UHGV virus genome: UHGV-0126502
Direction: 5' to 3' (one strand)
Source: a virus
DNA length: 37,604 nucleotides
The position numbers were made by a program, and so were the translations under genes. The notes below the pieces were generated by a model, which worked only from the letters and a program-made list of their open reading frames with translations, ran no database searches and was not told the DNA's origin. This document shows, piece after piece, positions 25,711 to 25,984 of the stretch; position 1 is the first letter of the stretch; each line of letters starts with the position of its first letter.

Positions 25711-25740
25711 TTGACACATTTACAGGTTTGCTTGTATTTT
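25711..25740 (+). promoter_or_regulatory. Candidate repressor-controlled early promoter (PL analogue) with a fourth operator copy
   Basis: Perfect TTGACA (25711-25716), 18-bp spacer, TATTTT; spacer contains ACAGGTTTGCTTGT (25723-25736), one mismatch from operator 1. Confidence 0.6.
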
Positions 25741-25757
25741 TAATCGCAATAAGTAAT

Positions 25758-25770
25758 CGCTCTTTAACAA
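25758..25770 (+). promoter_or_regulatory. boxA-like antitermination element
   Basis: CGCTCTTTAACAA, an exact match to the Nus-factor boxA consensus GCTCTTTAACAA, about 10-15 nt downstream of the predicted start site. Confidence 0.6.
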
Positions 25771-25984
25771 ACTGAACCGCGTGACAGGTAAGCCGCAGTA
25801 CTCCTGGCAAAATGAAATGGCACCCGATGGGATCGAGGTAAGCGCCGAGTCCGTATGCGTACGGTAAGCGTAGAGGACAACACCGCGACGAACTGATAAG
25901 TCACGCAAGTTGAAACGCCCCGACGATGGGGCGCTTAGTTCCTTTAACTCTGGGTGGCCGGAAGGGTACCCATGCTTAAAGAAA

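Follow-up and report, generated by a model that had tools for sequence, protein, structure and literature searches.

A boxA-led structured leader RNA in early operons of enterobacterial prophages, a candidate functional analogue of the put antiterminators

The put RNAs of the phages HK022 (putL and putR) and HK639 (putL) are experimentally established processive antiterminators, which act in cis and independently of any protein. They bind the zinc-binding domain of the RNA polymerase subunit β′ and are blocked by rpoC mutations in this domain. Nus complexes of the type formed on ribosomal RNA (rrn) leaders are strong against Rho and poor against intrinsic terminators, and a long untranslated RNA is a classic Rho substrate. 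Two further leader RNAs, EAR of Bacillus and RARE of Salmonella, promote read-through without a dedicated RNA-binding antiterminator protein. To our knowledge, very few RNAs reprogram RNA polymerase alone, and put is essentially the sole phage example in enterobacteria. The put RNAs were found to act on the polymerase by themselves just downstream of PL (PMC9378689). The boxA element together with Nus factors shields long untranslated RNAs from Rho, and boxA alone is enough for the anti-Rho protection of CRISPR arrays (PMC7665894). Here, the early leader of the UHGV virus genome UHGV-0126502 (37,604 nt, the whole of which is referred to as the window) was compared with these systems. The window represents an E. 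coli prophage, its positions 25600-26000 being 100 % identical to E. coli NCTC9022. Its early leader contains a module of 176 nt (25758-25933, plus strand) that consists of a consensus boxA and a structured domain. The comparisons suggest that this module is probably a Nus-coupled leader RNA that acts in cis as an antiterminator, and a non-homologous functional analogue of put.

Exchange with put RNAs in a promoter-proximal slot

Of 5426 complete E. coli genomes, 107 contained the module, boxA and structure together, as a single mosaic unit, in every case on the chromosome. The unit was also found in four isolated phages of the vB_EcoM series and in about 100 IMG/VR contigs, which yielded 66-68 distinct variants. 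It is also present in four other genera of the Enterobacteriaceae (Citrobacter, Pseudocitrobacter, Trabulsiella and Pluralibacter). A pattern scan of genome contigs gave four true matches among 53, all of them from Enterobacteriaceae, and relaxed pattern scans of IMG/VR returned no distant relatives.

The similarity between genomes begins exactly at boxA, with mosaic junctions just 5′ of it, and ends exactly past the terminal hairpin (P7, see below), behind which the 3′ flanks diverge at once. Both flanks are unrelated across lineages. Upstream of the module, promoters and immunity types vary widely: 79 distinct contexts were counted, comprising at least eight promoter/operator types. The downstream sequence was varied as well. 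A strong sigma-70 match (score ≥9.5) was identified in 39 % of these 79 upstream contexts, compared to 1 % of the control windows. The −10 hexamer usually ended 17-23 nt before boxA in the window type and about 62-65 nt before it in the lambdoid type, a distance that was constant within each type despite differing promoter and operator sequences. By these alignments the module is a promoter-proximal leader cassette, of which boxA and structure are inherited as one unit.

For the phage's own backbone, the comparison set consisted of the 54 IMG/VR loci carrying the 300-aa early protein of the window. A covariance model of the module matched upstream of this gene in 28 of them, while 22 contained in the same slot a put-family RNA, which could be aligned with the putL elements of HK639 and HK022. 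Module and put were not found together in any of the 54 loci; the remaining four had too little upstream sequence or gave no clear assignment. The slot lies 3′ of the repressor gene, its terminator and the promoter, and 5′ of an RprA-like terminator and the early genes.

The second backbone is that of the HK639-like lambdoid prophages of the strains ABWA45 and TC24 (loci L003 and L004), in which the module is part of the PL operon and is flanked by cI on one side and by kil/gam/bet/recE on the other. Their PL leader matches that of HK639 in 46 of 48 nt, and the first gene with its ribosome-binding region is common to both as well. Between these shared blocks, HK639 has approximately 90 nt with two stem-loops, annotated in GenBank as 'putL-like antiterminator RNA', and L003 and L004 have boxA, the module and about 250 nt more. 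Both this type and HK639 contain an intrinsic terminator about 1.1-1.2 kb further downstream, before kil/gam/bet. In L003 it was found 1.16 kb 3′ of the module, where the annotated PL-operon terminators of HK639 are situated.

Two unrelated phage backbones, as aligned here, thus each use either put or the module at one position and never both, and no recognised N gene accompanies either element. Since this exchange is reciprocal and mutually exclusive within one slot, functional equivalence with put appears to be its most economical explanation.

The equivalence does not extend to descent. A search with nhmmer using the HK639 put core recovered the HK022 putL and the 22 slot RNAs, and neither the window nor any locus bearing the module gave a match. 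Conversely, the module covariance model R1 gave no match in HK639 or in the early region of HK022. The module has 176 nt, at least six helices and possible pseudoknots, whereas put has about 70 nt and two stem-loops; the module opens with a consensus boxA, which put does not possess, and no homology to the conserved put sequence (CGAACGGCGCG...AAACCAUGCGUCGG...GGCGGG...CGGCAAU) was detected in the module. The two share the position in the leader of a PL-type promoter, 5′ of terminators and early genes. An earlier note, made from the window sequence alone, had proposed that antitermination may be RNA-based (put-like) or purely Nus-dependent here. The joint conservation of boxA and structure and the exclusivity with put support this proposal, with the correction that, by sequence comparison, the module is not homologous to put.

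BoxA and the structured domain

The following elements of the module are used below.

25758-25770, plus strand: boxA, CGCTCTTTAACAA / CGCUCUUUAACAA (rrn-type consensus), 5′ edge of the module
25779-85 with 25900-06, plus strand: closing helix P1 (GCGUGAC with GUCACGC), enclosing the core
25792-95 with 25805-08, plus strand: hairpin P2 (GCCG with UGGC), from RNAalifold
25796 and 25798-25800 with 25885 and 25883-25881, plus strand: candidate pseudoknot 1 (loop-to-strand)
25811-13 with 25909-11, plus strand: candidate pseudoknot 2 (AAU with GUU), immediately 3′ of P1
25822-25839, plus strand: hairpin P3 (ACC-CGAU, loop GGG, AUCG-(A)-GGU)
25842-45 with 25868-71, plus strand: helix P4 (GCGC with GCGU), enclosing P5
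25851-55 with 25860-64, plus strand: hairpin P5 (CCGUA with UACGG), inside P4
25916-25933, plus strand: terminal GC hairpin P7 (CGCCCC-GAYGAU-GGGGCG, loop GACGAT in the window), 3′ edge of the module

The boxA begins 10-11 nt 3′ of the predicted transcription start (about position 25747). The exact Nus boxA reported by the earlier note about 10 nt after the start was thereby recovered, and it is unique in the window: the 12-mer GCTCTTTAACAA occurs once even if one mismatch is allowed, with 0.13 occurrences expected by chance. The element equals the rrnB boxA TGCTCTTTAACAA in 12 of 13 positions and agrees with the rrn consensus GCUCUUUAACAA. Across the 66 distinct variants, TTTAACAA is invariant and GCTC nearly so. 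In the lambdoid variant L003 a hairpin (GGCGGACAGCAAGUCGCC, 2979-2996), which is absent from the window type, lies immediately 5′ of boxA; this order of hairpin and boxA echoes that of boxB and boxA in rrn leaders.

For the structured domain, RNAalifold was applied to the 66 variants and resulted in seven helices. In this model 99.6 % of the alignment cells are paired and five pairs are changed on both sides. When the 3′ partner was slid by 1-3 columns as a control, the paired cells fell to 21-37 %. A mutual-information scan of the alignment added two long-range contacts. The extended model comprises 40 pairs in eight helices, with 98.8 % paired cells and eight pairs changed on both sides, and its covariation score was 0.110 compared to 0.054 for shuffled and ≤0.035 for slid controls. 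Compensatory changes were seen at eight base pairs, which belong to seven helices, including two pseudoknot-like ones. After allowing for shared lambdoid history, about 10 independent compensatory events were counted. The covariance analysis that the earlier note had suggested therefore did reveal compensatory changes, and the region 25758-25933 is, on this covariation, a conserved structured RNA.

The changes are distributed over the individual helices. In P1, the pair 25780/25905 is C-G in 42 sequences, A-U in 13, U-A in one and U-G in one. P2 is paired in every cell, with G-U replaced by A-U in two sequences. The pair 25799/25882 of pseudoknot 1 occurs as U-A (40), C-G (13) and A-U (1), and 25798/25883 changes once from G-C to A-U. 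For the region of P2 and pseudoknot 1, 25792-25800 may instead pair with 25881-89 in a fully nested alternative. The highest mutual information of all column pairs was found for 25813/25909 in pseudoknot 2 (C-G 37, A-U 13, U-A 4, U-G 2). This contact extends beyond the closing helix P1 and would thus form a pseudoknot. In P3 a C-G pair is replaced by U-A in L096, in P4 a G-C pair by A-U in 13 sequences, and in P5 an A-U pair by G-C in L024. P7 shows a change from C-G to U-G in 10 sequences and to U-A in one.

The strongest independent check of the structure is given by two divergent copies (L241 and L245), which were found later via a neighbouring protein and are thus outside the set used for building the model. 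In both, P3 is rebuilt as GCC-GCGA...UCGC-(A)-GGC, and the P4/P5 arm is still formed by another sequence. Three further variants (L054, L091 and L237), which belong to two sequence backgrounds, have lost the P4/P5 arm by a clean deletion of 26 nt between direct repeats. The arm may be dispensable, or these prophages may be decaying. The deletion takes out exactly one GGTAAGCG repeat unit, which equals the whole P4/P5 arm.

The three repeat copies described in the earlier note were found to be two exact copies of GGTAAGCG (25837-44 and 25863-70) and a first copy that reads GGTAAGCC (25787-94) and matches in 7 of 8 positions. The small palindromes were present at 25851-64 (CCGTATGCGTACGG) and 25824-32 (CCCGATGGG), although for the latter region the relatives better support a CGAT/ATCG pairing of 25825-28 with 25832-35. 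The GC hairpin placed near the module end is P7. Of the features expected by the earlier note to be conserved in relatives, boxA is kept together with the structure, and the repeats are lost in the divergent copies; with boxA and structure conserved jointly, the proposal of the note withstood the refuting condition that it had set. Since L241 and L245 keep the helices and lose the GGTAAGCG repeats, the helices, rather than the repeats, are the conserved feature.

Behind P7 the sequence reads CUUAGUUCC, UGCAGUGA or CUGAUUCA, depending on the context. P7 is part of the module and not an intrinsic terminator on the plus strand, because no U-tract follows it on this strand.

The plus strand was assigned from the context, since the promoter is found at a fixed upstream distance, boxA is meaningful only in this orientation and the operon is co-directional; the module would accordingly act in the plus strand RNA. 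The asymmetry of G-U and A-C combinations favours the same strand under the hairpin and pseudoknot models (99.6 % and 98.8 % vs. 93.3 %). Several C-A mismatches of the sense strand would turn into G-U pairs if the antisense strand were the RNA. Among the relatives, no conserved open reading frame (ORF) was detected in the leader on either strand. Mini-ORFs on the plus strand were rejected as coding, with start codons lost and indels of 1-2 nt in relatives. A 46-aa ORF on the minus strand was rejected likewise, with 65 % protein vs. 85 % DNA identity and indels of 1-2 nt that break the frame.

Compared to the nut/N system of lambda, the window is alike in that a boxA opens the early leader, RNA structure follows, the promoter is under the control of a cI-type repressor and terminators lie downstream. 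The module boxA has the full rrn-type consensus, whereas that of lambda is the weaker CGCUCUUA, and the window holds a single copy of boxA and module, which is a further difference. A nut-type boxB, i.e. a short stem with a GNRA-like pentaloop just 3′ of boxA, was not found: boxA is followed by 8 nt and then by the 5′ strand of the long-range helix P1, and there is no local hairpin before 25792. The boxA elements of rrn leaders, CRISPR arrays and suhB are similar in preceding long untranslated RNAs on which Rho would otherwise act, but these host elements lack a conserved structured domain of about 160 nt. Neither boxC nor a similarity to the flanking rrn leader was detected. Kinship with the rrnB leader beyond boxA (a shared ATCAGAC and, in the lambdoid variant, a GUG run resembling boxC) was considered and rejected, the local alignment after boxA being no better than with shuffled sequences (p = 0.20 for the lambdoid variant and 0.29 for the window).

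In Rfam 15, no match at gathering level was obtained in the whole window and none at E ≤10 within 25500-26900 that corresponds to the module; a search of 25740-25960 gave only chance-level matches (E ≥0.8). EAR and RARE belong to other taxa and have other sequences and structures, and the module matched no Rfam family. A search of the literature with sequence strings of the module gave no match; a search by phage name gave one paper (2026), on temperate coliphages of the urinary tract, whose text this negative does not cover. From these comparisons, the module would work like put, with a Nus/boxA entry as in nut and rrn, and is a member of none of these families.

Read-through in the early operon and rival explanations

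The surroundings of the module are arranged as follows.

24647-24871, minus strand: cro-like helix-turn-helix (HTH) gene, divergent from the cI-like gene
24889-24952: three operators between the cro-like and cI-like genes (cores 24891-24904, 24914-24927 and 24937-24950, 23 bp spacing)
24979-25608, plus strand: cI/LexA-like repressor gene (HTH and S24 peptidase), upstream of the promoter and co-directional with it
25629-25656, plus strand: intrinsic terminator of the repressor gene (9-bp stem 25629-25650, then a T-run; folding energy ΔG −15.0 kcal/mol)
25711-25740, plus strand: early PL-like sigma-70 promoter (TTGACA 25711-25716, 18-nt spacer, TATTTT 25735-25740)
25720-25737: fourth operator, TTACAGGTTTGCTTGTAT (core 25722-25735), within the promoter spacer
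25985-26554, minus strand: antisense gene of 189 aa (phrog_1244, function unknown), between module and terminator
26610-26723, plus strand: RprA-like segment with an intrinsic terminator at its 3′ end, located after the promoter and before the first early ORF
26779-27827, plus strand: first rightward early genes (49 aa, then 300 aa; ORF 1 is 26779-26928)

The repressor was identified by Pfam (Peptidase_S24, E 2.4e-18; HTH_3, E 9.6e-15) and is named 'LexA family protein' in RefSeq. The operator core ACAG-N6-YTGT has only four copies in the 37.6-kb window, and the operators were also found as a 20-nt repeat with 90 % identity. The promoter matches the consensus in 10 of 12 positions and is the top-scoring plus strand site in 24400-27400. 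All parts of the earlier description, namely a consensus −35 downstream of the CI-like gene terminator and a fourth operator in the spacer, are present. By its position 3′ of cI and its direction, the promoter is the analogue of PL in a lambda-like layout.

The early transcript would remain untranslated for about 800 nt before the early genes, crossing the antisense gene and the terminator at 26684-26709 (hairpin 26684-26703, T6 at 26704-09; ΔG −9.8 kcal/mol). Within 25741-26929, no promoter was detected on the plus strand. The order is more compact in the relative L010, which lacks the 189-aa antisense gene: the repressor terminator is followed by the promoter, boxA and module, the RprA-like segment with its terminator and the first early gene. 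This terminator (ΔG −15.7 kcal/mol, T8) lies less than 100 nt after the module and 13 nt before the Shine-Dalgarno sequence and ATG, and no promoter was found between the module and the first early gene of L010. Since the terminator precedes the genes and no promoter was found in between, the layout of promoter, module, terminator and genes, as predicted, requires read-through for early expression. A strict terminator census under-called, missing the window's own terminator, and was not used quantitatively.

In the proposed mechanism, cleavage of the LexA-like repressor during the SOS response would start transcription from about 25747. The boxA would emerge first and recruit the host factors NusB-NusE (S10) together with NusG and NusA. 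The next 160 nt or so would fold cotranscriptionally into the closing helix P1, the hairpins P2, P3, P4/P5 and P7 and the two pseudoknot-like contacts. The folded domain would stay on the elongation complex, either by contacting the polymerase as put does or by stabilizing the Nus complex as lambda N does. The polymerase modified in this way could escape Rho over the ~800 nt antisense to the moron gene (25985-26554) and read through the terminator into the replication and recombination operon starting at 26779. BoxA alone would not explain such read-through, because rrn-type Nus complexes are weak against intrinsic terminators; for the same reason, the structured domain may add a put-like or N-like activity.

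Several points weigh against this reading. The evidence for antitermination, for Nus-factor involvement and for independence from a phage protein is comparative throughout. In the lambdoid clade, boxA departs from the consensus (GCUUCUUUAACAA or GCUUUUUAACAA). The family is narrow, with a mean identity of about 91 %, many of the cells changed on both sides come from this one clade of 13 sequences with shared history, and variants without the P4/P5 arm exist. The folding energy of the plus strand is unremarkable compared to shuffled sequences (z +0.97), the minus strand of 25745-25945 folds better than its shuffles (z −1.95), and the G-U/A-C asymmetry is neutral under the nested alternative (93.8 % vs. 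94.1 %). The lambdoid flanks were examined over 5-10 kb, so that a more distant cofactor gene is possible. Finally, the RprA-like segment of L010 (53.5 bits) starts exactly at the end of the structured domain.

The last of these points belongs to the explanation that comes nearest to the antiterminator reading, though it is itself rather unlikely, in which boxA alone provides Nus-dependent protection from Rho and the structured domain has another task, as a regulatory RNA that is processed or acts in trans, or as the 5′ part of a composite RprA-like small RNA (sRNA) ending at the downstream terminator. The prediction for L010 is a transcript that stops at the strong terminator after about 300 nt. 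Of about 97 loci, 54 have the RprA-like 14-mer TGCTGTGTGTAGTC 45-740 nt 3′ of the module, and the protection of CRISPR arrays gives a precedent for boxA acting by itself. However, the lambdoid prophages carry the module without the RprA-like part, and variable inserts of 45-740 nt, including the antisense gene, separate the two. Relatives with put in place of the module retain the same RprA-like 14-mer and terminator, and the module end has no U-tract, so that the own 3′ terminator of an Hfq-type sRNA (hairpin and U-tail) is missing. An unrelated sRNA function would also leave the exclusivity with put unexplained. Slightly less probable again is a large nut-like site, i.e. boxA and structure bound by an unrecognised N-like phage protein as in lambda, P22 and mEp021. 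A nut site is likewise organised as a boxA with adjoining RNA structure, and N-like proteins, which are small and evolve quickly, readily escape detection, as in the case of Gp17 of mEp021 (PMC11893012). An arginine-rich stretch, RDVLRYRRKNF, occurs in the 49-aa protein of the first early ORF (26779-26928), but this protein also has a C-terminal transmembrane helix, its ORF lies 3′ of the terminator and it was not found in the lambdoid loci. A boxB-type hairpin is missing after boxA, and the slot otherwise holds put, which needs no protein (PMC9378689). In agreement with the earlier note, no N-like gene was detected in the window by Pfam or PHROGs, the only antiterminator being a Q-like protein in the leftward operon. 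When the ORFs of 21 lambdoid loci were compared with all window ORFs using BLAST, only HTH/cI repressors and spurious ORFs overlapping the module were shared, so that no common cofactor gene emerged. A scan for ORFs with arginine-rich motifs was too noisy to rule a tiny N-like protein in or out.

Two other explanations are considered very improbable, each to the same degree. The size, the multi-helix fold, the possible pseudoknots and the highly conserved unpaired stretches recall aptamers, and the module could be a ligand- or state-sensing leader (riboswitch or attenuator) gating early transcription. It has no Rfam riboswitch match, though, and no evident alternative pairing of terminator and antiterminator. 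P7 lacks the U-tract, the terminator lies at a variable distance of 45-770 nt, and the module and put are exchangeable. An element that works as DNA or through the minus strand, such as protein-binding repeats or a terminator or insulator for convergent transcription, would fit the better folding of the minus strand (z −1.95), the presence of the GGTAAGCG repeats and the score of P7 with TTTCAAyTT as a minus strand terminator. Against it, L241 and L245 keep the helices and not the repeats, the compensatory changes indicate a base-paired single strand, no conserved minus strand promoter was found, many contexts have no minus strand gene downstream, and the spacing of boxA and promoter is sensible on the plus strand only. 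The reading as a Nus-coupled antiterminator RNA in the place of put is therefore preferred.

Neighbouring features and significance

The rightward operon continues beyond its first two genes with DUF2800, DUF2815, Nmad5 and DNA polymerase A genes. The leftward operon contains the cro-like gene, a Prim-Pol/DUF5906 primase and the Q-like antiterminator, followed by apparent late genes. The Q-like gene (21172-21594, minus strand; PF06530, E 2.7e-30) lies 3′ of the cro-like and primase genes. The phage would thus pair a protein, Q, for its late genes with an RNA element for its rightward early operon.

The RprA-like segment at 26610-26723 matches Rfam RF00034 with 49.1 bits (E 8.5e-5), which does not reach the gathering score of 70, and the RprA-like RNA of L010 (7071-7167) with its 53.5 bits is likewise below this score. 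The 3′ part, AAUUGCUGUGUGUAGUCUUUGCCC and the terminator, is identical to the RprA consensus. With this RNA, freed by termination or processing of the early leader, the phage may imitate the host sRNA RprA. An exact direct repeat of 11 nt (ACTGTAGGGGT) was found at 26571-26581 and 26605-26615, spaced 34 nt apart. The repeat is flanked by the start of the antisense 189-aa gene and by the RprA-like segment, and a regulator could bind there.

Directly 3′ of the terminal hairpin, mini-ORFs with a strong Shine-Dalgarno sequence were observed (L003, 3203-3214; L005, about 3214-3225; window, 25973-26011). In the lambdoid prophages the sequence is GGAG-N8-AUG AAG AAC UAA and in the 89-3156 type GGAGG-N7-AUG CAC AAG UAA; the window version has 12 codons. 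They may be ribosome-loading sites or bar-like minigenes. An antisense 'moron' gene is situated 3′ of the module in both phage types (window 25985-26554 and L003 3559-4011, both on the minus strand). The window protein has CxxC...CxxC motifs, and that of L003 is annotated as 'ECs_2282 family putative zinc-binding protein', its gene overlapping an HK639_45-like ORF on the opposite strand.

In over 100 E. coli genomes the module identifies the leader of the early operon, a region that is now unannotated or has spurious ORF calls. The kind of system suggested by the comparisons is cis-acting, RNA-mediated processive antitermination, with a module outside the known families tested (put, nut, rrn and Rfam). 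In its more specific form, which we regard as evenly balanced between true and false, the module would represent a class of processive antiterminator RNAs with boxA and a pseudoknotted domain of about 160 nt, using host Nus factors only and resisting both Rho and intrinsic terminators. Under this same form, which carries the same even weight, an RNA would do the job of lambda N, having arisen independently or by displacement of put, and would be exchanged as a cassette among unrelated temperate phages of the Enterobacteriaceae. The idea is directly testable, since the natural swaps of put and module in otherwise identical operons are ready-made controls. If true, it would be a second, independent RNA solution in the slot of put, and the consensus boxA would connect the put-type (RNA-only) and the N/rrn-type (Nus-dependent) mechanisms.

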